From positions 160,001 through 224,000 of IMG/VR virus record IMGVR_UViG_3300031992_000005: DNA of 64,000 bases; one strand, given 5' to 3'. This document shows positions 1-64,000 of this stretch, in pieces. A program made the translations under genes and the position numbers. Position 1 is the first letter of the stretch; the number at the start of each line of letters is the position of its first letter. The notes beneath the pieces were generated by a model. That model was not told the origin of the DNA. It saw nothing but the letters and a program-made list of their open reading frames with translations, and ran no database searches. The DNA is from a virus.

Positions 1-120
1 GACGAACTTCTCGCCAGTGGATTTAATACGAGACAGACTGATGTAAGACCAGCAAACAGTATTAATACTGCTTTGCAACTTGTAGCTGTAATATTCCAAC
101 TTCAGAGTTTACAGCAATTT
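1..120 (+). CDS. nrdD: anaerobic ribonucleoside-triphosphate reductase NrdD, exon a (5' end outside window)
   Basis: Frame 1 is open from the window edge (...INTALQLVAVIFQLQSLQQFG). It continues as GVSASHLDWTLVPYVKKSF at 387 once 121..386 is removed. Confidence 0.75.
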
Positions 121-386
121 GGTAGGCAAAACTGCCTGTTAAGCCCTTTCCACTAATCAGTGGGGTATAGATGTAATCTATGCTAACGATGAAGCCTAAG
201 TGTTCAGTGATGCGACATAAGGTAATATCGTGGGAATGTAATTTAATAAAATTACAAGCCTGTATCGACTATCTGCGGATCGGCAGAGTAAGGCAACTAT
301 TGATACGTTGTTTGAAATGGGCTTTGCTAGATTTATTAAGTCTAGTTAAGATATAGTCAGTGCATATAGAAATATATGATAAAACG
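121..386 (+). mobile_element. group I intron, ORF-less (nrdD intron 1)
   Basis: The 5' exon ends in U. It has gtatcgactat (P7 5' strand) and aagatatagtcagtgc (classic S element GATATAGTC). The P9 hairpin is catata-gaaa-tatatg and the terminal G is at 386. Confidence 0.65.
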
Positions 387-658
387 GGTGTATCGGCATC
401 ACACCTCGATTGGACTCTTGTTCCATACGTTAAGAAATCGTTTTATAAGCATTTCAAGACAGGAGCAGAATTCATTGAAGGAGTAACAATTCCTATTGAG
501 GAATTTAACGATAAAATGTCGCTCGATGATGAGAAGTATAAGTCGAGCGGAAAAGTTTATACATTTGCTATTAAGCAGACAGAGAAAGAACTAAAGCAAG
601 CAGTGGAGGGAATGTATCATAATCTCAATACACTCCAATCACGTAGTGGGAACCAATT
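387..658 (+). CDS. nrdD: NrdD exon b
   Basis: Reads GVSASHLDWTLVPYVKKSF...MYHNLNTLQSRSGNQ(L). ORF 360..662 runs into a stop just past the junction. Confidence 0.75.
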
Positions 659-1830
659 ATAACTTGCTGATTATCAGCTAGTTACGAAAGTAGCGAAATA
701 TTGATTGGCTATGTAGAAATACATTGAAATAATCGGGGCAAAATCGGTGAACCCTAAATTTTAAATTGTAAAAATTAATTCATTTCACTTTAATAGAAAT
801 TATTATATGGGTAAAAGAGTAAAAATCACAGAAGAATTAAAAAAAGATATTATAAATTTTTATCGCAGTAAGCCAATGTCATTTCTTACAGTAAGCGAAA
901 AATACGGTTTATGTTTGCCAACAATAAGTAAGATTTTAAAAGACGAAGAAAGATACAAGAAAGCGTCTATTTTTAATCCAGACTTTGATGAAGCGTATTT
1001 TGAAAATATTGATACAGAAGCAAAGGCATACTTTTTTGGATTAATAATTGCTGACGGTAATGTTTTTATCGACGAAAAAAATAAAAAAGCGAATAGGCAA
1101 GCAGTTATATCAATAATGCTAAATTCAAGTGATGAATATATACTAGAGCGCTTTAAAAACGAGGTAAAAACAAATACTATTGTTGGACATGATGGTAGAG
1201 GGTGTTCACAAATAGCGGTTAGAAGTAATAAAATGTCAAAAGACTTGGAAAAATATGGTGTTGTGCCAAGAAAAAGTTTTATAACTTATTTACCACAAAT
1301 AGATAAAGAGTTAATGCCGCATTTAATAAGGGGCATAATGGATGGAGACGGCAGTATAAATGCCCATTTAATTAAAAGTGGTAGATTTTTACATTCGATT
1401 GCATTTTGTGGAACTCATAGATTAATGTCTGAAATATCTGATTTTATATATTCTAATGCGAATTTGAATACAAAACCCAAAGTGTATGATTATAAAACTA
1501 GAACACTTAGTGAAATTGCTGTAAGAGGTATCGATGATATGTTTAAACTTGGGGAATTTATTTATAACAATTCAACCATATACTTAAACAGAAAAAGAGA
1601 AACTTATAATATGTTTTTAGAACATTACAATTTTTAAAACAAGGGAATACCGAGGTAATTTCTGAGATTGCGAAAGGCTCAGAAATACCGTAGAGCGTAG
1701 GAGGTGAATAAATATAATCCTCCCAAGAGTGTCCCCCCTTAGCGAGTAAAGTCGAAGGTGAAAATGTACGCCGACCTTATGGGAAACCATAAGAACTATG
1801 GGATAAAAAGCCTGTAGGATAACATAAGTG
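659..1830 (+). mobile_element. group I-like intron carrying a LAGLIDADG homing endonuclease gene (nrdD intron 2)
   Basis: P1 is AAUU/GAUU with U.G at 658. The 3' module ctatgggataaaaagcctgtaggataacataagtg ends in G at 1830. The same 5' (ggggcaaaatcggtgaa) and 3' modules recur in two polA introns. Confidence 0.7.
807..1637 (+). CDS. LAGLIDADG-family homing endonuclease (intron-encoded)
   Basis: Two LAGLIDADG-type motifs, FFGLIIADGNV and LIRGIMDGDGSI. The ORF lies wholly inside the intron. Confidence 0.85.
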   Translation: MGKRVKITEELKKDIINFYRSKPMSFLTVSEKYGLCLPTISKILKDEERYKKASIFNPDFDEAYFENIDTEAKAYFFGLIIADGNVFIDEKNKKANRQAVISIMLNSSDEYILERFKNEVKTNTIVGHDGRGCSQIAVRSNKMSKDLEKYGVVPRKSFITYLPQIDKELMPHLIRGIMDGDGSINAHLIKSGRFLHSIAFCGTHRLMSEISDFIYSNANLNTKPKVYDYKTRTLSEIAVRGIDDMFKLGEFIYNNSTIYLNRKRETYNMFLEHYNF

Positions 1831-1951
1831 GCCATTTACATCTATCAATTACGGTACATGTACGTCCGTAGAAGGTAGAATGGTGATAAAAGCCTTGCTT
1901 GAAGGTTCGATTAATGGTGTGGGTAAATTTCATAGAACATCCATATTCCCT
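1831..1951 (+). CDS. nrdD: NrdD exon c
   Basis: Reads (L)PFTSINYGTCTSVEGRMVIKALLEGSINGVGKFHRTSIFP, containing the NrdD PF(S/T)SINYG block. It is absent from the ORF track because it is short. Confidence 0.75.
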
Positions 1952-2266
1952 AAAAGTACCATTGGGGAAATAAAACAAGGTGAACTGTCAGAGACAGGTG
2001 TGGAAGTAGAATATAGTAGGAAATGACTATTGAGATACTTTTGCTAACAGGGGAAATCTAAACTTTAAATTAAAGCACGACAATCCTGTGCCAAGTTCTT
2101 TTATAGAAAAGGTCAAACGACTATCCTATGACGTTATTTAACTGAGGAGTAGGTCTATAGCGATATAGTTCCGAAGTGCCTTGTACTACTGAAGAGTAGT
2201 AATGATATAGTCTAATCCGGCTTCCTAGTAAGCGTTAAAGTATTGCGAAAGCAACGGTATATAATG
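1952..2266 (+). mobile_element. group I intron, ORF-less (nrdD intron 3)
   Basis: P1 is UCCCU/GGGGA with U.G at 1951. It has aacgactatcctatgacg ... aatgatatagtctaatcc and terminal G at 2266. The core is nearly the same as polA intron 59638..59932. Confidence 0.7.
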
Positions 2267-2449
2267 TGTGGAATTTTCCAGTATATGAAGGGTGTTAATG
2301 ATAAGCCTGGAACGCCAAATTATGATATGTATAAACTTGCATTAGAGTCAACAGCAAAACGTTTGTATCCAAATTATGCGAACGTTGACTGGAGTGGGAA
2401 TGCTGGATATGATAGAAATGATCCAAAAACTTACTTCAGCACGATGGGT
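2267..2449 (+). CDS. nrdD: NrdD exon d
   Basis: Reads CGIFQYMKGVNDKPGTPNYDMYKLALESTAKRLYPNYANVDW...YFSTMG. The N-terminal MRKQRYIM of ORF 2243..2452 is intron read-through. Confidence 0.75.
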
Positions 2450-2703
2450 TAGTGTAAATGTAGCTCATCTAAAATCTCTTGAACCGTGCCAACGGGTGTC
2501 CAGAAATGGGCTAACTGCCAGGCCCTAAAGTTTTAGGGTGAAGCAGTGCTAAGCTTAGAAGAATTTCTAAGAAAGTGTATCGACTATTGGTGATGAATGT
2601 AGCCAAGTAGGGGAGGAGATAGGCACCTCTTCGAAGCGGGAGACTTCTCAGGAAAATGAGAAGAAGATATAGTCAGTGCCTTTGGTAACAAAGGGTTAAC
2701 ATG
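2450..2703 (+). mobile_element. group I intron, ORF-less (nrdD intron 4)
   Basis: P1 is AUGGGU/GCUCAU with U.G at 2449. It has gtatcgactat ... aagatatagtcagtgc, P9 cctttg-gtaa-caaagg and terminal G at 2703. Confidence 0.7.
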
Positions 2704-3642
2704 TGCAGAACTGCAAACGGTTTTGATATAAATGGTTTAGGTCAGTTAAAGGATGGTAGAGGAAATGTATGTCCAGTTACTATCATTATGCCGACCTTAG
2801 CGATGGAAGCCGACAGAGATGTAGAGAAGTTCATGCGTCTCTTAGGAAGAAAAATTGAAGAAGCAAAAGACATGTTAATTGAGAGATTCAACTGGATTTG
2901 TAGTCAAAGTCCAGAGTCTGCTAGATTTATGTATGAGAATAATACTATGGCGGGTTATGTTCCGTCAGAGGGTATTAGGTCTGCATTAAAGCATGGAACT
3001 CTCAGTTTAGGTCAGCTTGGCTTAGCAGAAACTCTCCAGTTATTGATTGGAACGGATCATACAACAGAGGAGGGTATGAAGTTAGCCAAGAGAATTGAGT
3101 CTCTTTTCAAGAAGAGATGTGCAGAATATAAAGAAAAGTATAAATTAAACTTTGGTGTATACTACACACCAGCCGAAAATCTCTGTTATACTGCATTGAA
3201 GAAATTCAGAACAAAATATGGAGTAATAAAGGATGTAAGTGATAAGGAATTTTTCACTAATTCCATCCATGTTCCTGTATGGAGAGATATGAACCCATTT
3301 GAGAAGATTGATATTGAATCTCAGCTCACGGGTTATTCTTCGGCGGGTTGTATTACTTATGTTGAACTCCCATCCACAGTATTAAATAATATTGAGGCTT
3401 TGGAGACGTTAGTGAATTATGCAATGGATAAGGATATTCCTTATTTTGCAGTTAATGTCCCAAATGATACTTGTATGGAATGTGGTCATACTGGTGAGTT
3501 CGATGTTTGTCCTGAATGTGGTTCAGATAATGTAAGTCAGTTAAAGCGAGTTACTGGCTACTTGAATCTAGATTACAGAACTTCTTTCAATGAAGGAAAG
3601 CAGGATGAAGTACGGTATAGAGTAAAACACATCAAAGGTTAG
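2704..3642 (+). CDS. nrdD: NrdD exon e (C-terminal part, glycyl-radical region)
   Basis: Reads CRTANGFD...GRGNVCPVTIIMPTLA. It has a C-terminal Zn ribbon CMECGHTGEFDVCPECG followed by KRVTGYL (glycyl radical motif RVxGY). Confidence 0.85.
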   Translation, partial: CRTANGFDINGLGQLKDGRGNVCPVTIIMPTLAMEADRDVEKFMRLLGRKIEEAKDMLIERFNWICSQSPESARFMYENNTMAGYVPSEGIRSALKHGTLSLGQLGLAETLQLLIGTDHTTEEGMKLAKRIESLFKKRCAEYKEKYKLNFGVYYTPAENLCYTALKKFRTKYGVIKDVSDKEFFTNSIHVPVWRDMNPFEKIDIESQLTGYSSAGCITYVELPSTVLNNIEALETLVNYAMDKDIPYFAVNVPNDTCMECGHTGEFDVCPECGSDNVSQLKRVTGYLNLDYRTSFNEGKQDEVRYRVKHIKG

Positions 3643-3645
3643 TTT

Positions 3646-4143
3646 ATGAGGTATATTAAAATAACAGGCCCTGATGTAGAAAATGGTCTAGGTTTTAGAA
3701 CTACGTTATGGATTTCTGGGTGTAAGTGCCATTGTGAGGGATGTCATAATCCTGAAACATGGTCCTTCACATTCGGAAAGGAGTTCACTGATGAATCTTA
3801 TCAGGAGCTAAAGGAAAATTTATCCAAGCCTTATATCAAGGGGCTAACTTTATCTGGTGGTAATCCAGTTGATTCCCCGGAAGATTTATTAAGTTTATTG
3901 AAAAGAGTAAGAGAGGATTTTGGTAATTCAAAGGACATTTGGCTTTATTCTGGCTATGTATTTGAAGATCTCCTAAAGGATCCTCTATGTAAAGAAATTT
4001 TAGGCTTAGTTGATATAGTGGTAGATGGTCCATTTATCCTAAGCAAAAGAAATACAGCGCTCCCCTTCAGAGGTTCAGAGAATCAAAGAATTATCTTGGT
4101 TCAAGAATCCCTGAAAGAGGGAAATATAATCCTAAAGCAATAA
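3646..4143 (+). CDS. nrdG: anaerobic ribonucleotide reductase activating protein (radical SAM)
   Basis: Has the CxxxCxxC cluster in GCKCHCEGCHNPETW. It starts 3 nt after the nrdD stop. Confidence 0.85.
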   Translation: MRYIKITGPDVENGLGFRTTLWISGCKCHCEGCHNPETWSFTFGKEFTDESYQELKENLSKPYIKGLTLSGGNPVDSPEDLLSLLKRVREDFGNSKDIWLYSGYVFEDLLKDPLCKEILGLVDIVVDGPFILSKRNTALPFRGSENQRIILVQESLKEGNIILKQ

Positions 4144-4493
4144 TAAATAATCCATTCCTCAGGAGAAAACTCTTGGGGAATGGCATCTGCTGAATGAAAA
4201 ATATTCATTTATATCAAAAAATATTCAAAAATAAGCAAGCTTTTTAAAATCACGTGATATTTATATATGAATACTAAGATAAATAATAAAAAAAAATAAG
4301 TGAACTTATGAAACATAAAAATATTAAAGTTGTTTCGATTGACACTGAAAATATGTTGTATACTTGTGACGATGGTAATGAATCCATTAATGGATGGGCT
4401 TGAAACATTGTCAATAGAAGAGTTACAGAAACACATAGATAGTGCAAAACAAGCAACACTTGATATAATTGAAAAAAAAATAGAAAGTAGGCT

Positions 4494-6134
4494 ATGATTA
4501 TACAGAGTAAGTATACAAAGATATTCCATTCAAAGGATTTAACTCGTCAGAAGTATGATGAGTTAAATGACTTTGCTGTGCTTATTCAAAACCATAAAAA
4601 CACCGTGTCACAATACGTTAATGATAACATTCTTCATTTCTTGGAATACAATAAGTTCCAATTCCTTAAGGTAATGAGAGAACGTTTCAAAGAAGTTATC
4701 CCAAGTTCATTTGATGCACAACTTTATACACAAGTGTTCACTTGTTATCAGAATAAATTCGATGCAATACAACGTAAACTTGTCTTTGAAATCGTTACAT
4801 TTAAAGGATTTGAGTTTTATAAACGTGATACCAAGAAACATAAGGAAGGTGACTTGAAAAAAGTAGTTTTTGATAAGAAACAAACACCATTATCTAACTG
4901 TCTTACTTATCTTGCGAGATACAGTAATGAGAATACAATAGACTACATCAATGACAATATAAGCAAGTGTGACGAGAAGAAACGTGAGTTCTATAACAAC
5001 ATACTAAGATGTTGTGATAAATTCGGATTTGAACGTCTCTACAATCTTGCTTTGTCAAAAAGAAAACGTGTTGTCAAGCATTATTCTGAATATCCTATTG
5101 AGTTCAAGTCATTAACGTTCAGTGGTAGGTGTAGGAAGACAAGGATAATAGACTACAACAGTAGGTTTGGTTCAGTAATCAATTCATTCGTAAGTCTCAG
5201 TGGAATTGGTAGGAAATCATTTGATGTACCAGTTACCTTTAATAAAGGTTGGCATGGAAGTATGAAGGATTACAGAAAGAAAAATAACGATTATGAATAC
5301 ACGCTTACATTTAATGAAAAGAATCACCAAGTGAATATTCATCTGTGTAAAGATGGAGAAAGGTATATACCACAAGTACATGGTGAAACAATAGGCATTG
5401 ATGTTAATTGCAAACATAATTTGTTCAGTTTGTCAGATGAAACCACTTATGACTATGATAGAAAACTTGTTAATGACTTCTGTAAACTATCTCTTGAAAT
5501 AGATAAATTGAAAGAAAAAGATAAAAAATATAAGGTTGGTAAACGTAAACAGCAGAAACTTGATACTCTCAAATCCAAAATGATTAAGTCTGAGCAGCAA
5601 CTTATTGCTAATATGTGTAAGGTATTACATTCACAAGGTGTGGGGCATATTGTAATGGAAGACCTTGATAATGGATTTGGCAAATGCTATGTTAAAGATA
5701 AGGATAATGAGAATATAAATTACAACAGAAAGGTTAAATTCCTTGGCTTGAGTAGTCTTAAACAAGAAGTTGAGCGTATTGCAAAGAAATATGATATTGC
5801 GGTTTCAACAGTTCAAGCAAGTTATACATCGAAGATGTGTCCTATGTGTGGATGTATTGAGGACGAAAACAGACCAAACCAAGAAACATTTGAATGTGTT
5901 GAATGTGGACATAAAGATAATGCAGACTTTAATGCTGCAAAGAACATAAGGAACAGAGTGCTTGTAATCGTGTTACGAGATTTGCTCTTAAAACAAAAGG
6001 ATAATGGTGCTTTTGAGCCTAAGAAACTTAAACGTGAGAAGGTAAAGGAGGTATTGTTATCGTTTCGAAGAAGCCTACAAAATGTAGGAAGTGAATGTAC
6101 AGAAAGTAGTGTGACTACTTTTGACTATGTTTAA
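4494..6134 (+). CDS. tnpB: TnpB-like (IS200/IS605 OrfB / Cas12-ancestor) RNA-guided endonuclease, no tnpA nearby
   Basis: RuvC-I is IGIDVN, RuvC-II is HIVMEDL, the Zn ribbon is CPMCG...CVECGH and RuvC-III is NADFNAAKNI. All catalytic positions are present. Confidence 0.85.
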   Translation: MIIQSKYTKIFHSKDLTRQKYDELNDFAVLIQNHKNTVSQYVNDNILHFLEYNKFQFLKVMRERFKEVIPSSFDAQLYTQVFTCYQNKFDAIQRKLVFEIVTFKGFEFYKRDTKKHKEGDLKKVVFDKKQTPLSNCLTYLARYSNENTIDYINDNISKCDEKKREFYNNILRCCDKFGFERLYNLALSKRKRVVKHYSEYPIEFKSLTFSGRCRKTRIIDYNSRFGSVINSFVSLSGIGRKSFDVPVTFNKGWHGSMKDYRKKNNDYEYTLTFNEKNHQVNIHLCKDGERYIPQVHGETIGIDVNCKHNLFSLSDETTYDYDRKLVNDFCKLSLEIDKLKEKDKKYKVGKRKQQKLDTLKSKMIKSEQQLIANMCKVLHSQGVGHIVMEDLDNGFGKCYVKDKDNENINYNRKVKFLGLSSLKQEVERIAKKYDIAVSTVQASYTSKMCPMCGCIEDENRPNQETFECVECGHKDNADFNAAKNIRNRVLVIVLRDLLLKQKDNGAFEPKKLKREKVKEVLLSFRRSLQNVGSECTESSVTTFDYV

Positions 6135-56938: not shown

Positions 56939-57369
56939 GGGGATAATGCCTTATATATGTAATTTATATTATCTTTCATACATGTTTACTAAAGGGGATC
57001 GTCCGTGATGGATATATCCCCTCATTTTTTTGTTCAAAAAAAATAGGATCGAGATATACATATTACTATGTATAACCCTGACTGACTATTCTTTTTGAGA
57101 TTTATTATACTCTATATATATCTATTTATAAGGCATTAAGGGGAGAAAAAATACCGCCCCAGAAAGAGAAAAATGCCTTATATATAGAAACAGACGCATA
57201 ATAATTTAATTTCATAATAATAACTAGGGGATCGGTTCGTGATGAATAGATCCTTTTTTTTTCATATCCCTTTAATGCTTTATATATGATCATAAAAAAT
57301 ATTTTTTTAAGTTTGAAAATAATGATTGGAGGATCAGTCCGGGATGGATAGATCCTCTTTTTTTTTTTG
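56939..57369. repeat. four ORF-less mini-cassettes (three on +, one on -)
   Basis: + promoters are at 56939, 57170 and 57267, with family hairpins at 56993-57022, 57226-57255 and 57328-57357 plus T-runs. The - promoter is at 57110-57145, with a hairpin plus U-run at 57036-57075. Confidence 0.55.
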
Positions 57370-57403
57370 TTCAAAAAAAATCCCCCGACACGGGGATTCC
57401 TTT

Positions 57404-57885: not shown

Positions 57886-58497
57886 AAAAAAAAGAGAGGA
57901 TCTATCCGTCTCGGACCAATCCTCTAAAAATTATTTAACCTAAATATGATTGTTATGAATGTTTTACATATATAAGAGTTTAAGGGGATAAAAAAAAGAG
58001 GATGACCTATCACAGGCGACCCTCTTCTTCAATAACAAAAATTTAAATCTTTAAATCTATGGATATAATATACAACATATATAAGGGTTTAAAGGGATAA
58101 AAAAAAGAGGAGATCTATCCATCTCGGACTGATCTCCACCTGACATCTGAATATACATCATACTAAAATGAGAGTATTACACGTTAATAAGGAATTAAGG
58201 GGATAAAAAAAAAGAGAATCTATCCATCTCGGACTGATCCTCTAATAAGAAACATTCTATTAATTCTTAAACTTTTACATATATAAGAATTTAAGGGGAT
58301 GAAAAAAAAAAAGAGAATCTATCCATCACGAACTGATCCTCTTCAGAGTAAAATAAACATTACACGTACATATATAAGGCATTTAAGGGGTATAAAAAAA
58401 ATGACCGACTCATCACGAGCCAGCCATTGAATAATTTTTGAACTTTTTTTACCCAAGAAAAATAAGTACTTTCATTTATAAGAATTTAAAGGGATTT
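57886..58497 (-). repeat. tandem array of six ORF-less mini-cassettes directly downstream of polA
   Basis: Period is about 100 bp. Promoter motifs are at about 57967, 58073, 58175, 58272, 58363 and 58470. Family hairpins are at 57894-57925, 57998-58027, 58107-58137, 58214-58243, 58313-58344 and 58402-58426, each with a U-run. Confidence 0.6.
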
Positions 58498-58545
58498 GAG
58501 AAAATAGACCAGCCCCACATTAAAGGCTGGCCCACAGAATTAATA

Positions 58546-58935
58546 TTATAGTCGGTGAAACCTAACGGTCACCTTTGATACATCCATCGATATAGAACAA
58601 CCATTTTCTAAGATTGTTCTGTAATATGGATCTTCAATCATCTTCTTTTCTGATACTAGCTCTTCCCTAGTCTTATCACATTCACACCTGATACTAGGGG
58701 AATTCATTAATTTGTCATAAATTAATATAAGATTACTAGCAGGACCAGAAAATTCTATCGTATTTTTGTCTATCTGCGTTAATGGACATGCAGATTCATA
58801 TCCATATCCACACAAAAGATCAAACAGTAACTTTATCTTTGGCCCAATAGTTGCACAATAATCCGTATATTTTTCATCATAATATGCCCTAATATCAAAT
58901 ATGTGATCTATTGGAATAAGATTAGTATTAGAATC
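58546..58935 (-). CDS. polA: family-A DNA polymerase, last exon
   Basis: Begins DSNTNLIPIDHIF..., and joining to ...QPIITVH restores motif C (VHD). The first 4 codons of ORF 58546..58947 are intron. Confidence 0.65.
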   Translation of the reverse strand, partial: DSNTNLIPIDHIFDIRAYYDEKYTDYCATIGPKIKLLFDLLCGYGYESACPLTQIDKNTIEFSGPASNLILIYDKLMNSPSIRCECDKTREELVSEKKMIEDPYYRTILENGCSISMDVSKVTVRFHRL

Positions 58936-59237
58936 CGTTCTCTTCACATAAATTCGCTACATTTATGCCGGGCAATGCCACAGCTAATCATCTCTGATTA
59001 GACGAGACTATATCTTCAGTAAATAATTACTGCCTACTTTTTCGAACACCCATCGCTTGTGCTCTACTCTACTCACTTCTTCAGGTTTCCCCTATGCTTT
59101 CGATAGTCGTTGAATAAGTTTATAACTTACTGCTGATTGACTCTATTCATTGGATTTTTACTTCTATTCGATAGTACCAATGACCTAACAAGTTGTTCCA
59201 GCAATTAAGTAGGTTTATAGTGCACCATAAACTAACA
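58936..59237 (-). mobile_element. group I intron, ORF-less (polA intron 5)
   Basis: P1 is GUGCAU/GUGCAC with U.G at 59238. It has the Q element AATCAGCAG, CGACTATCG ... AAGATATAGTCTCG and terminal G at 58936. It is homologous to the ends of intron 60663..62159. Confidence 0.7.
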
Positions 59238-59637
59238 ATGCACTGTAATAATAGGTTGTAATGGTTGCTTCCAACCATCTTTAATTGATGACCTAATATT
59301 ATTAAAGAATCCACTAGCCATAATTGTACTAGTTCCTCCTTGAATAGGTAAATTTACACCTAATCTTTTGATTCTGGCAATTATATTTTGCGCTTCTTTT
59401 TGATCTTTTGCTTTTGGCAAATATTCATAATACTCCCTTAACCTTAATTTGTCTCCTAACATGGTATTAATGTAACCATCATGATCTAATGGATACTGAC
59501 CCTGAGACTCCACATATTCCCTGAGCTTTGGAAAAGACTTATATAAACTCTGGATAATATTCTCAGCTTCTTCAACAGAACTATCTAGTCGAGCTGCTAA
59601 GGAATTTTTCCCTAAGCCGTACAATACACCCAAGAAT
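59238..59637 (-). CDS. polA: family-A DNA polymerase exon (fingers/motif B)
   Basis: Reads (I)FLGVLYGLGKNSLAARL... and NLPIQGGTSTIMASGF (cf. N.PIQGSAAD), ending ...IITVH. Confidence 0.8.
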
Positions 59638-59932
59638 CATTACTACTCATAATTTCTTATGAGATTAGACTATATCATTATCCGATTATTCGGATAGGTT
59701 GCACTTCGGAATAGAGAATTTCACTCTAAACCTACTCCTCGGTTAAAATTATTTTAACGTCATAGGATAGTCGTTACACTTTCTTAGACTAATCTAAGCT
59801 TAGCACGGTATTGGCATATCTTATTATTAAGACTTAGCTTTCCACCGTTAGCACTAATAAATTAGTACACCCTAGATTTCTAGGTTCACAACCTTTTCAT
59901 TAACTAATTACTTAGTTATGCCACATCTATCT
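59638..59932 (-). mobile_element. group I intron, ORF-less (polA intron 4)
   Basis: P1 is CCAU/GUGG with U.G at 59933. It has AACGACTATCCTATGACG ... AATGATATAGTCTAATC and terminal G at 59638. It is near-identical in core to nrdD intron 3. Confidence 0.7.
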
Positions 59933-60080
59933 ATGGTCTTGAATTTCTTTCTATAAGTCTTTTGTTCTTTTTTACTAAGGTTATTCCAACCTTCTTCACC
60001 TAAATATAGTTTCGAACTATATATGTATATGTCTTCTCCAGCGTTGAACTTACTTATTAGATCAGGATCCAAAGACGCGT
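59933..60080 (-). CDS. polA: family-A DNA polymerase exon
   Basis: Reads (Y)ASLDPDLISKFNAGEDIYIYSSKLYLGEEGWNNLSKKEQKTYRKKFKT(I), cf. Pol I ...S.D..L..AF..G.DIH..TA......R..AK..NFG. Confidence 0.7.
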
Positions 60081-60336
60081 CAATTTTGTTATCCTTAGAA
60101 CTTTTTATTTCTAAGTTCAATTGATTCTTAATTCTCAATTGTTCAGCATATATTTTCACCCTATTAGATAGGGTGGGGAACACTCGTGGTAGGATTATTC
60201 TATTCGTCACCTACTATGCGTTACACTACTAGGATACCTTTAATATTATCTTAGTTAGCACGGTATTGGCATCTCAGCTTTCACCGTTTTTGCTCCCTGT
60301 ACCCCGTAATATTACTATTACGGTGGGCAATTTTTT
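60081..60336 (-). mobile_element. group I-like intron, ORF-less (polA intron 3, same family as nrdD intron 2)
   Basis: P1 is GGGU/GCCC with U.G at 60337. It has GGGAGCAAAAACGGTGAAAGCTGAGATGCCAATACCGTGCTAAC. The 3' module CTTAGAAATAAAAAGTTCTAAGGATAACAAAATTG ends in G at 60081. Confidence 0.6.
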
Positions 60337-60350
60337 ACCCCGCGCTCTTA
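60337..60350 (-). CDS. polA: inferred 14-nt polA micro-exon
   Basis: TAAGAGCGCGGGGT supplies ..(I)KSAG(Y).. between two introns, which keeps the frame and motif A. Confidence 0.4.
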
Positions 60351-60647
60351 CAGATTGTTACCCTATAGGCTTTTTATCCTATAGTTCTATGGATTCATTT
60401 TATCCATAGCTCGGCATATATTTTCATCCTAGATAACTAGGATGACGGACACTCGTGGAGAGATTATATTTATTCACTCTCTATGCTCTACACTACTTAC
60501 TTAACCTTTCGCAATTTAAATAAGTTAGCACGGTATTGGCATCTCAGCTTTCACCGTTTTTGCCCGTTTATTATCACTTACATTACTATAAGTGACGGCT
60601 AAATTTTAACCTCGGCACTACTACATTGTGTTCAGGAGGCACGTTAC
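60351..60647 (-). mobile_element. group I-like intron, ORF-less (polA intron 2, same family as nrdD intron 2)
   Basis: P1 is GGAGAU/GCCUCC with U.G at 60648. It has GGGCAAAAACGGTGAAAGCTGAGATGCCAATACCGTGCTAAC. The 3' module CTATAGGATAAAAAGCCTATAGGGTAACAATCTG ends in G at 60351. Confidence 0.6.
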
Positions 60648-60662
60648 ATCTCCCGGTTCTCA
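60648..60662 (-). CDS. polA: inferred 15-nt polA micro-exon
   Basis: TGAGAACCGGGAGAT supplies (I)ENRE(I). Its Glu aligns with the conserved motif-A Glu (DYSQIELR). Confidence 0.4.
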
Positions 60663-62159
60663 CTTAGCTAAAACTAAGATGAACTCCTACATATCTCTAT
60701 GCAGATCAGACTATATCTTAATCTCATTTCTGAGATTCTTACCGTTTCCACTTAACGATTTCAAGTGTACTCCCATTACTGGGATAGTCGTTGGGGTTTA
60801 AGAATTTAATCAGTTAGTCGGGCTGATTTTCTTTTATTTTTTGAATAAGGACATTACTGTCTGTAATTACTTCAGTGAAATATCCATATTTTTCGTAAAT
60901 TTTTATTTCATTAGTGAAATATAATAATGGTATATTATTTTTCTTAGCATAATCGTACTTCAGATGATCCCTTTTTATAGCAATTTCTGAATAACGTTTA
61001 TCGTTAGGATCAAAATGTTGACACCCATGATACTCTACTAAGATATTATATTCTGGTAAATAAAAGTCAAACCTAAGATGTGATATATTCTTTAAATCTG
61101 GGTAAGTTTTCTCAGATGTAAATTCAATATTATTTCCCGTAAATAGGTCTGCCAAAAATAGTTCCCCATTAGAGTTAATGAGCGGGAATATGCTATCTTT
61201 ATCATCATCAGATAATAATAAGAACCTATAATAGCAATTACGAAATCTTCTATAAAAATCCTTCCTAGATAGGATATTATTGTCAGCAATAAATACCTTA
61301 AAATCTTCTACCGTATTAATATTAGAGTAATCTCTATTATTGTTTGGTAATAGACTTTCTTTCTCCTCTTTAGATAAGAGTCTACTAAATCTGCAATATA
61401 CTTGCTCAAATCTACGACAAAGATCTATTCTGGAGGTTATATTATTTTCTTGAATAAATGAACGAAAATCCTCATATGTATTTATATACGAATAATCTTT
61501 TAGCATACTAGGGAGAATTCTATTTTGATCTTCACTACTCAATTTAATAAACTTATTATATCCTCCTCGAAATCTTTTTTGAAAATCATAACGGCCTACA
61601 ATTTCGTATGTTTTAATGAATTTCCTAAAATCATCCTCAGTATTCAAAGTAGAGTAATCTGCCTTTTTTATAGTTCCTTTATAAGGTAAAATAGTTTCTT
61701 GCTCTTCCTTTGATAGAAAGTTTAAGAACCTAAGATAAGCCCCAGGATATTCAGTATGTAATGTTTTTCGAGAGTGAATATTATTAGTTTTAATAAACCT
61801 TTTAAAGTCGTTTGCAGTATTGAGATTAGAATAATTACCTAAGTTCGAAGGCAGTAATTTTTCTTGTTCATCATTACTTAATTTCTTGAAGCAATTATAA
61901 ACCTTTCTATACTCCTCTCTCAGCCTAGACCTCTTCTCAATACCATTATCTTTTATAAATTTTTTTATTTCCTCATAATCCATTTTTTTTTTAAATTTTA
62001 ATTTTTTTCGTTCTTCTTAAACCTGCTGATTAACTCTATTCCCTAGATTGTTACTGCCGTGACTAAATCGGCTAGTACTAGAGACCTAACAAGTCTTTCC
62101 AGCATTTAGTAAGTTTGTTTTTCATAAGGTCACCCTTATGTGACACTAGTTTCTAGTTA
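60663..62159 (-). mobile_element. group I intron with homing endonuclease gene (polA intron 1)
   Basis: P1 is GACAU/AGUGUC with U.G at 62160. It has the Q element TTAATCAGCAGG, CGACTATCC ... AAGATATAGTCTGATC and P9 CTGCATA-GAGA-TATGTAG. The terminal G is at 60663. Confidence 0.7.
60814..61983 (-). CDS. intron-encoded homing endonuclease, PD-(D/E)xK / Vsr-like (EDxHD-type) nuclease domain with 5 N-terminal tandem repeats
   Basis: It has five repeats of about 55 aa (N.x.DF+.FI..NNI.SR...). The C-terminus is ELFLADLF...LRFDFYLPEYNILVEYHGCQHF...KRDHLKYDYAKKNNIPLLYF. Confidence 0.65.
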   Translation of the reverse strand: MDYEEIKKFIKDNGIEKRSRLREEYRKVYNCFKKLSNDEQEKLLPSNLGNYSNLNTANDFKRFIKTNNIHSRKTLHTEYPGAYLRFLNFLSKEEQETILPYKGTIKKADYSTLNTEDDFRKFIKTYEIVGRYDFQKRFRGGYNKFIKLSSEDQNRILPSMLKDYSYINTYEDFRSFIQENNITSRIDLCRRFEQVYCRFSRLLSKEEKESLLPNNNRDYSNINTVEDFKVFIADNNILSRKDFYRRFRNCYYRFLLLSDDDKDSIFPLINSNGELFLADLFTGNNIEFTSEKTYPDLKNISHLRFDFYLPEYNILVEYHGCQHFDPNDKRYSEIAIKRDHLKYDYAKKNNIPLLYFTNEIKIYEKYGYFTEVITDSNVLIQKIKENQPD

Positions 62160-64000
62160 ATGTCAAAATATGTTAGTAATTGGTCATCCCCACCATATAT
62201 GATATTTCCATTTTTGTTCCGAATTGGAGCAGGAATTAAGCAATTTTTGACAGGGCTATGTGAGGGAATCGTATGAAAACTTGATGACCAGCGTTTACTT
62301 GATTTTTTGAGTACTTCGTATGGAGTAAAATTCTTCTTTACTGCTCCTGGTTCATCCGGATCTGCATCTCTAATTGGAATATGATGCTCATCTTCAATTA
62401 CCCATTTTGCCCTCTTATTAAACATTCCATCTGGACCTACATACACACTTAACATTTTCGCATGTTTCTTATATATGAGGTAGTTGAGTGTGAATTTTCT
62501 CATAAAGTAGAAATCATTACTGAGATCTACCTCAGGATCAAATGGGCTTTCATAATTTAAGTAATCACCCTGATACTCTGGAAAAAGTTGTGTTTGTGTG
62601 TTAAATCCAAGAAAATCTGTCCAAATTTCCTTTACTTTATCTGCGGTTTGATATAAAACTGTCTCTACACCTTTCACACTAACTTTTTTTCCAAGTTTAG
62701 GGCTACCATAAAATTCGAATGCTAGGTCAAATACTTTCTTCGGGTATAATGGGCTTTCGTATTCGCCATTACTGTCATAATACTTTTTCCATTCATCTAA
62801 CATTTCTTGATAACCTTCATCTATATCAGTAATACCTCTACTTGAATAGAATTTTGTTGTCTCAGGTAACTGCTGGATACTTTCTGACATGGCAGCTAAG
62901 AAAGCAGTTTTTCCTTTAAGTCCAGGAATGATAGGATTAACCATCATATCATATACGATTTTATCATTCTGTTCTGGACTAAGACACATGAAATAATTAT
63001 CAGATAGAAACTTAGAATACTCCAAGAGATCCATTTTCTTACCAAAGATATATATTTTCTCTGGGATATTATGAATATCCTTAAGCTGTTTTTTATTTAT
63101 TTTTTCCAGCTCAGTATATATCTTTCGATAATACATGTATTTCTCAAGTTCTATATGCTTCTTATTAATCTTTCCCTCTGAATCAAATTTAAGACTATCA
63201 ATTCCGAAGAGATGTATTGTTTTTTCTGCCAGGACCCCTAAGAATTTCTTTTTCCTAATAATACCTTCGTCGATCTTACCCTTTAACTTAACTTCGCTTG
63301 CAGCTTGTCTAACAAAATCTACGAATTTTTCTCCAAAGTCCTGTCCATATTTCATAACAAGTCCTCCCTCATTTAATCCAGTTTCTGTTGAATCTAGGTA
63401 ATCGAGATTACTTGTTAAGATATATTTTAAGATTTCAATTATATTACCTTGAAAAAAGTTTCCTTCTTCCAATAGTTTTACAGCAATTGGCTTATATCTC
63501 TTTATATTAGTAGCCAAGGATTGATGTTTTTGCATCTTTATCCAACAAAGAGCTCTAGTTGCCCAAGTACTAGACCAAGCCATCATCTCCTTACAATACT
63601 TTTCAAATCTAAGTCTGAATGGCTCATCTATATAGTGGCCATGTGACATAAGTCTTGCGCCAAGTCTCAGGTTATCTAAGAAAACGTTGAAACACTCTTC
63701 TGTATACTCAGACTTTTTCTTAAGATAAATCATAAGAGTATAGAATGAGTCAAGGCAGCAATACTTTCCTAAGATTTCACTTGGGATAGGCATGAATTGA
63801 TTTCCCCAATACTCTAAGATCAGTTCCTTAAATTCATCTTCATATCCAGGATATCTCTTACAAATTTCTCCCCATTCAGGAGTATTTGTAAAGTTTTCTG
63901 GGGTTACTTTTAATTCTAGGTGAATGTCCTTCTTAAGTTTACCAACTTCCTCCAATAGCATGTGTTCAATTAAGTCACTAAGTCTATCGAAGTCAGAATC
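62160..64000 (-). CDS. polA: family-A DNA polymerase, upstream exon (5' end outside window)
   Basis: The frame is open to the window edge (DSDFDRLSDLIEHMLLEEV...). It ends ...GGDDQLLTYFD(I) at the start of motif A. Confidence 0.75.

Follow-up and report, generated by a model that had tools for sequence, protein, structure and literature searches.

A family A DNA polymerase gene, polA, lies on the minus strand at 58.5-64.0 kb of a 64,000-nt stretch of viral DNA (here called the window: positions 160,001 to 224,000 of IMG/VR record IMGVR_UViG_3300031992_000005). The 3' two-thirds of the gene are inside the window, which truncates it at 64000. Five group I introns interrupt polA, all of them within catalytic motifs A, B or C. 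Three of these are adjacent and split motif A, leaving coding pieces of 15 nt and 14 nt; the three insertion sites, after GACAU (intron 1), GAGGU (intron 2), and GGGGU (intron 3), span just 29 nt of coding sequence. An original prediction, made from the letters of the window alone, had proposed micro-exons of these two sizes. It is very probable that this is the five-intron polA gene of a large, intron-rich phage, with the 15- and 14-nt exons between its three motif A introns joined by self-splicing. The corrected map reads as follows, in order of transcription (L numbers are our labels for loci on public contigs).

62160..64000, minus strand: polA exon 1; open frame from 64000, truncated at the window edge; 3' end ...TATTTTGACAT; U62160 is the U of the U.G pair in the P1 helix of intron 1.
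60624..62159, minus strand: intron 1, group I, 1536 nt; Rfam match and homologous introns at the same site; encloses an endonuclease open reading frame (ORF); terminal G at 60624.
60814..61983, minus strand: probable homing endonuclease ORF, 389 aa, inside intron 1; repeated N-terminal modules and a putative C-terminal nuclease domain.
60609..60623, minus strand: micro-exon 2, 15 nt, TAGTAGTGCCGAGGT; completes Ile, encodes Ser-Ser-Ala-Glu, and starts Val.
60351..60608, minus strand: intron 2, group I, 258 nt, no ORF; Rfam match, L020 counterpart, and covariation; terminal G at 60351.
60337..60350, minus strand: micro-exon 3, 14 nt, TAAGAGCGCGGGGT; supplies the rest of Val, all of Lys-Ser-Ala-Gly, and the first part of Tyr; KSAGY or KAAGY in homologues.
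60081..60336, minus strand: intron 3, group I, 256 nt, no ORF; paralogue of intron 2 with an L021 counterpart; terminal G at 60081.
59933..60080, minus strand: exon 4, 148 nt; begins ACGCGTCTTTGGAT... and ends ...AAGACCAT; L153, L154, and L158 have exon 3 joined to its start.
59638..59932, minus strand: intron 4, 295 nt, in motif B (between KTI and FLGVLYG); Rfam match of 49.6 bits; site empty in L001 and L018.
59238..59637, minus strand: exon 5, 400 nt; Pfam DNA_pol_A on the spliced product.
58936..59237, minus strand: intron 5, 302 nt, in motif C (between TVH and DS); Rfam match of 63 bits; P1 GUGCAU/GUGCAC.
58546..58935, minus strand: exon 6, 390 nt, up to the stop codon; the spliced ORF has a single, terminal stop.

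Joined in this way, the exons form an ORF of 2808 nt, one open frame of 935 codons whose only stop is terminal (...LLTYFDISSAEVKSAGYASLDPDL...). Across motif A the product reads YFD-ISSAEV-KSAG-YASLD (YFDISSAEVKSAGYASLD), which restores the motif A residues Asp and Glu, and all three motifs are intact (A, DISSAEVK; B, KTIFLGVLYG; C, VHDS). The spliced product matches Pfam DNA_pol_A (PF00476) with 83 bits, against a cutoff of 34.3, and the Taq and Klenow polymerases with E 3e-12. The alignment to Taq Pol I (LDYSQIELRVLAHLSGD, with DYSQIELR) is ungapped over motif A, so that the motif A Asp comes from exon 1 and the Glu five residues later from the 15-nt exon.

Homologues were sought with the spliced C-terminal 413 residues and then aligned. 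Five are uninterrupted over motif A, and four of the five read YFDISSAEVK(A/S)AG(Y/F) followed by ASGD or KSMD; the most distant uninterrupted homologue (P0031) reads YFDISGMEVRTLAYLSGD. The consensus of these uninterrupted homologues is DISSAEVK(A/S)AGYAS.D. Motif A also lacks an intron in L002 and in 16 IMG/VR contigs of up to 401 kb.

Each of the three motif A sites is occupied singly in some relative. The intron 1 site alone is filled in L001 and L018, with an endonuclease ORF, and in L022, L023, and L025, without one; in all five the intron ends ...GAACAnAwUG and TAGTAG follows. The intron 2 site alone is filled in L020 (TTCGACATTAGTAGCGCCGAGGT, then the intron, then AAAGGCCGCTGGATTT), and the intron 3 site alone in L021 (GACATTAGTAGTGCTGAGGTCAAGAGCGCTGGAT, intron, ATGCGAGCTTGGAC). 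The sequence of the 15-nt exon is contiguous with that of the neighbouring exon or exons in L001, L018, L020, L021, L023, and L002. Especially informative are L001 and L018, whose polymerases are 78% and 81% identical to that of the window and whose intron 1 homologues include the endonuclease. Their intron tails (...GAGAACCGGGAGAAGTAACGT..CTC..GAACAnAATG) run directly into TAGTAG(T/C)GC.GA.GT.AA..CAGC.GG.TAC, which encodes (I)SSAEVK(S/A)AGY with no further intron; the window has the same tail, and then TAGTAGTGCCGAGGT at 60623..60609. As judged by these alignments, the window has all three independently used sites filled together. The three-intron arrangement is identical in L149, L150, and L151; L152, which extends only into intron 2, shows no departure from it up to that point. 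Over 5.6 kb, L149 (ENA ERZ27257202, 185 kb) matches the window at 100% identity and is its probable source; for L150 and L151 identity to the window is 99.84%, with no difference anywhere in the intron region.

Other interruptions of polA were seen among the relatives. L018 carries, at 1560-2771, an intron at the motif C site (the site of window intron 5); it ends ...AAGCG, followed by GATTCC, and holds an ORF of ~290 aa (about 1703-2573) that is absent from window intron 5. L023 has an extra group I intron of 286 nt (4268-4553), of the intron 4 type, between FHTI and ISHGD; this position, upstream of motif A, is unoccupied in the window. In L002, where polA is otherwise free of introns, it is interrupted after WRKR by an insert of ~170 nt (about 747-918) whose 5' end resembles the intron 2/3 type (..TTGGGCCGTCTATGGTAGTAATACTATAGATTATTAATGAG) and after which the exon resumes with TCAAAACTGTATTCCTGGGC; possibly this insert is a group I intron at yet another site, reduced in size or degenerate.

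The introns themselves were examined with a permissive Rfam Intron_gpI (RF00028) scan of 58500-62400; the gathering score of this model is 50 bits. Five matches were found within 58984-60889 on the minus strand, in 3.3 kb of polA: 58984-59262 (63 bits), 59646-59892 (49.6 bits), 60687-60889 (38 bits), 60387-60618 (38 bits), and 60118-60346 (17.2 bits). E values are 2.4e-7 for each of introns 1 and 2 and 0.4 for intron 3. In a scan of the whole window, intron 5 alone exceeds the gathering score. The original prediction had taken the two small intervening segments for group I introns, and the model does match both, at 60387-60618 and 60118-60346, each time below the gathering score. The lower scores of introns 2 and 3 are explained, we infer, by a compensated P7 helix, GCAUA/UAUGC in place of GACUA/UAGUC. 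A scan of four related loci together, by Rfam E value, returned nothing despite clear intron 1 homologues, a result attributed to stricter filters for larger inputs and not evidence of absence; a megablast of the region against GenBank phages gave short intron-core matches only, the phage itself being absent from that collection.

In all five introns, as read from the sequence, the 5' splice site lies at a U.G wobble in P1, and all five end in a G before the exon (G60624, G60351, G60081, G59638, and G58936), with exon starts fixed by homologues and joined contigs. The guiding helices are these.

Intron 1: P1 GACAU/GUGUC; P10 UAGU/ACUA; both read from the sequence.
Intron 2: P1 GGU+UAA/UUA+GCC, with the U.G pair at U60609; P10 UAAG/UUUA; P7 GCAUA/UAUGC.
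Intron 3: P1 GGGU+AA/UU+GCCC; P10 of about 1 bp.
Introns 4 and 5: P1 CCAU/GUGG and GUGCAU/GUGCAC, respectively.

The Rfam model's own alignment likewise puts the P1 of intron 2 at GGUUAA/UUAGCC. For intron 1, the internal guide sequence reads as ACUAGUGUC, P6 as GGUUUAAGAA/UUCUUAAACC, enclosing the endonuclease ORF, and P7 as GACUA/UAGUC.

Introns 2 and 3 align end to end with the L020 and L021 introns when intron 2 starts at 60608. Introns 2 and 3 are each closest to the same-site counterpart, with 71% and 73% identity, respectively; between the two window introns the identity is 68%. RNAalifold on these four sequences recovers P2, P3, P4, P5, P6, an extra helix, P8, P9, and P9.1. With P7 (GCAUA/UAUGC) added as a pseudoknot, the fold has 68 pairs, and 98.5% of its cells are paired, versus 28-44% when the partners are slid. 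Compensatory change on both sides is found in 38 of the 68 pairs, a count reached by none of 500 shuffles; with four sequences the sample is small, and the shuffle result is indicative, not a formal probability. The fold of intron 3 is wholly kept in this alignment despite its 17.2-bit Rfam score. The exon and P1 covary at the intron 3 site, with GGGU/GCCC in the window and GGAU/GUCC in L021. The extra helix (P7.1/P7.2) lies between P7 and the 3' strand of P3, at alignment columns 140-144/161-165, and four of its five pairs are compensated. This intron type would belong to subgroup IA, being IA2-like by resemblance only.

An exact 41-nt stretch, GCAAAAACGGTGAAAGCTGAGATGCCAATACCGTGCTAACT, is common to introns 2 and 3 (60563..60523 and 60293..60253, minus strand) and spans P3-P6. 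The identity could reflect strong constraint or gene conversion between neighbouring introns; the repeat also breaks k=31 assemblies at that point. The core signature of the intron 2/3 type (CCACGAGTG..TGAAAATRTATGC, with P7 GCAUA/UAUGC) occurs in at least 119 IMG/VR contigs; RF00028 gives poor scores to this phage subfamily, which is widespread.

Joined forms of the micro-exons occur in public contigs. Seven short contigs (L153, L154, and L158-L162), from seven samples and each below 2 kb, are identical or nearly identical to the window, and all retain intron 1. In L153, L154, and L158, ...CACAATG is followed by TAGTAGTGCCGAGGT, TAAGAGCGCGGGGT, and ACGCGTCTTTGGATCC (ACGCGTC...), that is, exons 2, 3, and 4 exactly joined. 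The junction of 60609 with 60350 is read through in six of the seven: these three, L159, which extends into exon 3, L160, and L162. The contig ends are informative too. L160 and L162 end in ...GGGGTA, the last base common to the paths from exon 3 into exon 4 and from exon 3 into intron 3; L161 ends in ...GAGGTTAA, the last base common to the paths from exon 2 into exon 3 and into intron 2. At the other end, L160 and L161 start at 62187, the first 31-mer that separates exon 1 followed by intron 1 (GACATTAA) from a form reading GACATTAG. This start fits the corrected junction of exons 1 and 2, which predicts exactly 62187. (The k=31 reasoning was checked on L152, which ends at 60534, one base before the first 31-mer inside the 41-nt repeat.) Among the contigs seen, exon-included forms are the only ones. 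The corrected map is not a chance product: it matches the homologue consensus residue for residue, and the joined form exists in public contigs.

Motif A assembled from 15- and 14-nt micro-exons amid three consecutive group I introns, as originally predicted, is borne out by homologues, relatives, and joined contigs alike. The predicted upstream exon end at U62160, with P1 GACAU/GUGUC, agrees with intron-less relatives, which read TTCGACAT and then TAGTAG over this point. The 14-nt exon at 60350..60337 was correctly placed, being joined on both sides in L153, L154, and L158, as was the third intron (P1 GGGU/GCCC, 60336..60081, with the junction continuing at 60080), for which there are joined contigs and the L021 counterpart. 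What failed was the boundary between introns 1 and 2. The predicted terminal G of intron 1, 60663, is displaced from the true one, 60624, where homologous introns end; the 15-nt exon assigned to 60662..60648 (IENRE) is instead 60623..60609, (I)SSAE(V), 39 nt downstream; and the P1 GGAGAU/GCCUCC with its 297-nt intron gives way to GGUUAA/UUAGCC and 258 nt. In place of the predicted junctions, 62160 with 60662 and 60648 with 60350, the contigs show 60609 joined directly to 60350 and point to 62160 joined to 60623. The predicted pieces do join in frame, and their product has the length of the homologues; its ENR stands where homologues have SSA. Such an error is easily made, as both candidate exons are 15 nt and either keeps the frame.

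Could that exact map nonetheless be right, with intron 1 ending at G60663, a 15-nt exon TGAGAACCGGGAGAT encoding IENRE, and a 297-nt intron 2 from 60647? It keeps the frame, places a Glu five residues past the Asp, and has a G before its exon and a U at the end of it. However, the stretch from 60634 to 60684 (minus strand), where the proposed exon and P1 lie, folds, within the 3' tail of intron 1, into a pair of adjacent hairpins (GUUC..GAAC and CGGGAG..CUCCUG). This two-hairpin fold is predicted in the window and in L001, L018, L022, and L023, its stems differing among them in compensatory ways, and is followed by a single-stranded tail of 9-10 nt ending in G. Since the same tail occurs in five relatives that lack intron 2, 60662..60648 is part of the intron 1 tail. 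In addition, P1 GGAGAU/GCCUCC has an A.C mismatch beside the U.G pair; 39 nt farther downstream there is a block that codes exactly for ISSAEV; six contigs (L153, L154, L158-L160, and L162) join 60609, not 60648, to 60350; the paralogues of intron 2 align from 60608, not 60647; and the map predicts a Logan contig start at 62188, where 62187 is observed. The original boundary is accordingly next to impossible. Almost as improbable is that polA is not spliced at all, and either yields several polypeptides, each terminated by an in-frame stop, or is a pseudogene in decay, overrun by selfish elements. Gene callers do give pieces of 889, 100, 133, and 133 aa, and stops occur 0-8 codons after every 5' splice site. 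Stops early in the intron are the usual state of phage group I introns, however, and separate polypeptides would lack the motif A Glu and KSAG, which the micro-exons alone encode. The exons are all in frame and conserved, the ribozyme helices carry compensatory substitutions, the arrangement is identical in several samples, and joined forms exist.

A more serious alternative concerns the short contigs. These hug intron 1, extending only 0-153 nt into exon to either side of it, and they imply that with- and without-intron forms coexist at several junctions in one sample; for these reasons we consider it likely that they are partly spliced RNA. RNA-level support is probably already present in public assemblies. 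Alternatively, they are DNA of phage variants without introns 2 and 3, in which case they prove insertion sites and say nothing about splicing or its order. Intron presence/absence polymorphism is common in this phage group, and we rate such variants as unlikely, though by no means negligible. All seven contigs are below 2 kb and lie around intron 1, whereas four assemblies of the same phage gave contigs of 9-185 kb; the coexistence, within one sample, of intron-bearing and intron-less forms at several junctions, which the ends of the Logan contigs imply, is most simply explained by splicing intermediates; and the flanks are 99.5-100% identical to the intron-bearing genome, with no co-conversion differences. 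Even as intron-less DNA alleles, the contigs fix the junctions of 60609 with 60350 and of 60337 with 60080. The DNA-variant alternative is one of several points that count against the interpretation preferred here, a five-intron gene spliced at the RNA level. A literature search on the accessions of the short contigs' samples and runs (JGI 3300024337, 3300024342, 3300035054, and 3300037037; SRR10838682, SRR10838750, and SRR7634052), aimed at whether the libraries were RNA or DNA, gave no hits. Introns 1-4 all score below the Rfam gathering score of 50 bits (38, 38, 17.2, and 49.6), and intron 3 combines the weakest score with almost no P10. The junction of exons 1 and 2 is backed only indirectly, by relatives and contig end points. 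Pattern scans for intron 2, 14-nt exon, and intron 3 in IMG/VR and JGI contigs gave chance matches only, and a scan of IMG/VR only for intron 1, exon, and intron 2 gave no match. The fullest form of the splicing interpretation is tentative, somewhat short of an even chance: that the seven contigs are metatranscriptomic, with the small introns removed, the 15- and 14-nt exons ligated, and intron 1 still present, so that downstream ligation precedes removal of intron 1. If the contigs are indeed RNA, no phage or bacterial gene found would have shorter RNA-backed internal exons flanked by group I introns, and splicing would follow an ordered pathway in which micro-exon ligation comes ahead of removal of the first-transcribed intron.

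How might three ribozymes share so little exon? In the proposed mechanism, each would pick its 5' splice site by a short P1 whose last pair is U.G. P1 would take 5, 3, and 4 exon nt for introns 1, 2, and 3, and P10 would pair with 4, 4, and about 1 nt of the next exon. From the 15-nt exon, intron 1 would use UAGU and intron 2 GGU; from the 14-nt exon, intron 2 would use UAAG and intron 3 GGGU. On each micro-exon, the demands of the two flanking introns would not overlap. Each intron presumably self-splices through the standard two-step, guanosine-initiated pathway. The two small introns would leave before intron 1, provided that the contigs are RNA; in that case the 31-mers of L160 and L162 link the intron 1 tail to exon 3, with intron 2 gone and intron 1 kept, which suggests that the 1.5-kb, ORF-bearing intron 1 is slow.

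Skipping of the 15-nt exon is predicted to cause in-frame loss of SSAEV, including the Glu; skipping of the 14-nt exon, or of both, is predicted to shift the frame. As skipping would lose the Glu or shift the frame, selection for exon inclusion is expected. Distinct guide sequences favour exon inclusion in engineering work (PMC10136302), and those of introns 2 and 3 are distinct, which fits. The arrangement itself may have arisen by successive homing into conserved active-site sequence.

An endonuclease within the 1.5-kb first intron had been part of the original prediction, and residues 270-366 of the ORF match PHROG 9084, 'homing endonuclease' (E 5e-19). A Pfam search of this ORF gave no match. 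The motif FDFYLP..VEYHG may point to a PD-(D/E)XK-like fold class. By exact look-up, the identical protein is present on 14 public contigs.

Elsewhere in the window, other genes and repeats were observed.

1-4143, plus strand: nrdD (anaerobic ribonucleotide reductase), which ends at 3642, followed by the activase gene nrdG at 3646-4143; both names are from the translations.
4494-6134, plus strand: ORF of 546 aa with a C-terminal CxxC...CxxC zinc ribbon and then NADFNAAKNI; it looks like a TnpB/OrfB-type transposon-associated nuclease.
57126-57374, minus strand, and 58299-58430, plus strand: short ORFs just downstream of polA that have the peptide KKKRIYPSRTDP in common.
20386-54458, both strands: six tRNA genes.

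The nrdD gene is apparently split by at least three group I introns with short exons between them. One of its introns, with a LAGLIDADG-type ORF (807-1637), ends near 1830 and has a 3' end like the intron 2/3 type; two more give Rfam matches, at 1942-2235 (39.8 bits) and 2355-2695 (35.2 bits). The shared KKKRIYPSRTDP suggests an inverted DNA repeat in the intergenic region downstream of polA.

The polA arrangement bears on annotation, RNA folding, and evolution. Exons below 16 nt are invisible to gene callers, and automated annotation reports a broken polymerase because the motif A Glu is encoded only in a piece of that size. Three ribozymes, of ~250-1500 nt, must fold and act only 15 and 14 nt apart. 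Introns 2 and 3, with 68% identity and the 41-nt exact stretch, are similar enough to risk cross-folding and exon skipping, as in Staphylococcus phage Twort; since the introns are similar and a skip of 14 nt would destroy the frame, this natural construct could be used to test what enforces exon inclusion. Finally, all five introns lie in motifs A-C, and each motif A site is used singly in relatives, a clear picture of an essential gene entered repeatedly, by homing, at its most conserved part.

Very short exons between self-splicing introns have precedents. In Twort, orf142 is interrupted by three introns of group I, a 23-nt exon separates two highly similar ones of type IA2, and exon skipping occurs (Landthaler & Shub 1999, as summarised in PMC10136302 and PMC11878797). 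The parallel is close: here too, similar introns flank a short exon (introns 2 and 3, 68% identical and 14 nt apart), and the two might behave as a single large ribozyme, with loss of that exon. Unlike Twort, the window has two consecutive short exons, both shorter (15 and 14 nt versus 23 nt), in a polymerase active site and not a tail tube gene; skipping of the 14-nt exon would shift the frame, and splicing is deduced here from sequence. The 23S rRNA of Coxiella burnetii has a 34-nt exon between two group I introns (PMC10136302); in contrast to the window polA, this gene specifies an rRNA, its introns differ in subgroup, and its exon is longer. Organellar mini-exons between group I or group II introns reach lengths of 3 nt and, in the extreme case, 1 nt (PMC8971849, which cites Cummings et al. 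1990 and Osigus et al. 2017). Like those in mitochondria, the window micro-exons are very short coding pieces between self-splicing introns, easily missed by annotation; unlike them, often spliced with the help of proteins, they belong to a bacteriophage gene.

Interrupted phage polymerases are also known. In SPO1, Bastille, and other Bastillevirinae, DNA polymerase genes contain up to three group I introns, many with homing endonucleases, and cDNA sequencing in this group revealed a small internal exon in phiNIT1 and exon skipping in SIOphi (PMC11878797). Like them, the window has a family A polymerase gene split by group I introns, in a large phage lineage of Gram-positive type. It differs in having five introns in one polymerase gene and ~25% identity to Herelleviridae polymerases, and a motif A micro-exon pair is not described for the Bastillevirinae in the same source, where the word 'micro-exon' does not occur (PMC11878797). 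The jug (jumbo gut) phages, of 360-402 kb, average 18.5 group I introns per genome; their nrdD, terL, and DNA polymerase genes are split, and some of the splicing was confirmed by metatranscriptome reads (PMC12880540). Uninterrupted polymerase homologues 65-66% identical to that of the window are found on IMG/VR contigs of 232-401 kb, which are likely relatives of jug phages. The window resembles these phages as part of an intron-rich, large phage with a split nrdD. It nevertheless represents a different lineage, whose nearest contigs are 94-185 kb and whose polymerase is 78-81% identical to those of the closest separate lineages (L001 and L018); and, in contrast to what is seen in window polA, the jug phage paper makes no mention of exons or micro-exons (PMC12880540).

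A search of the available literature for phage micro-exons flanked by group I introns found none reported. The original claim that no phage polymerase gene was known to be organised this way was overstated in view of Twort orf142, Coxiella 23S rDNA, phiNIT1, the Bastillevirinae, the jug phages, and mitochondrial mini-exons; two consecutive exons below 16 nt within polymerase motif A are a more extreme case of this kind. The kind of arrangement is known, and what is new is its degree: two consecutive exons of less than 16 nt, and three introns within 29 coding nt, in motif A of an essential polymerase.

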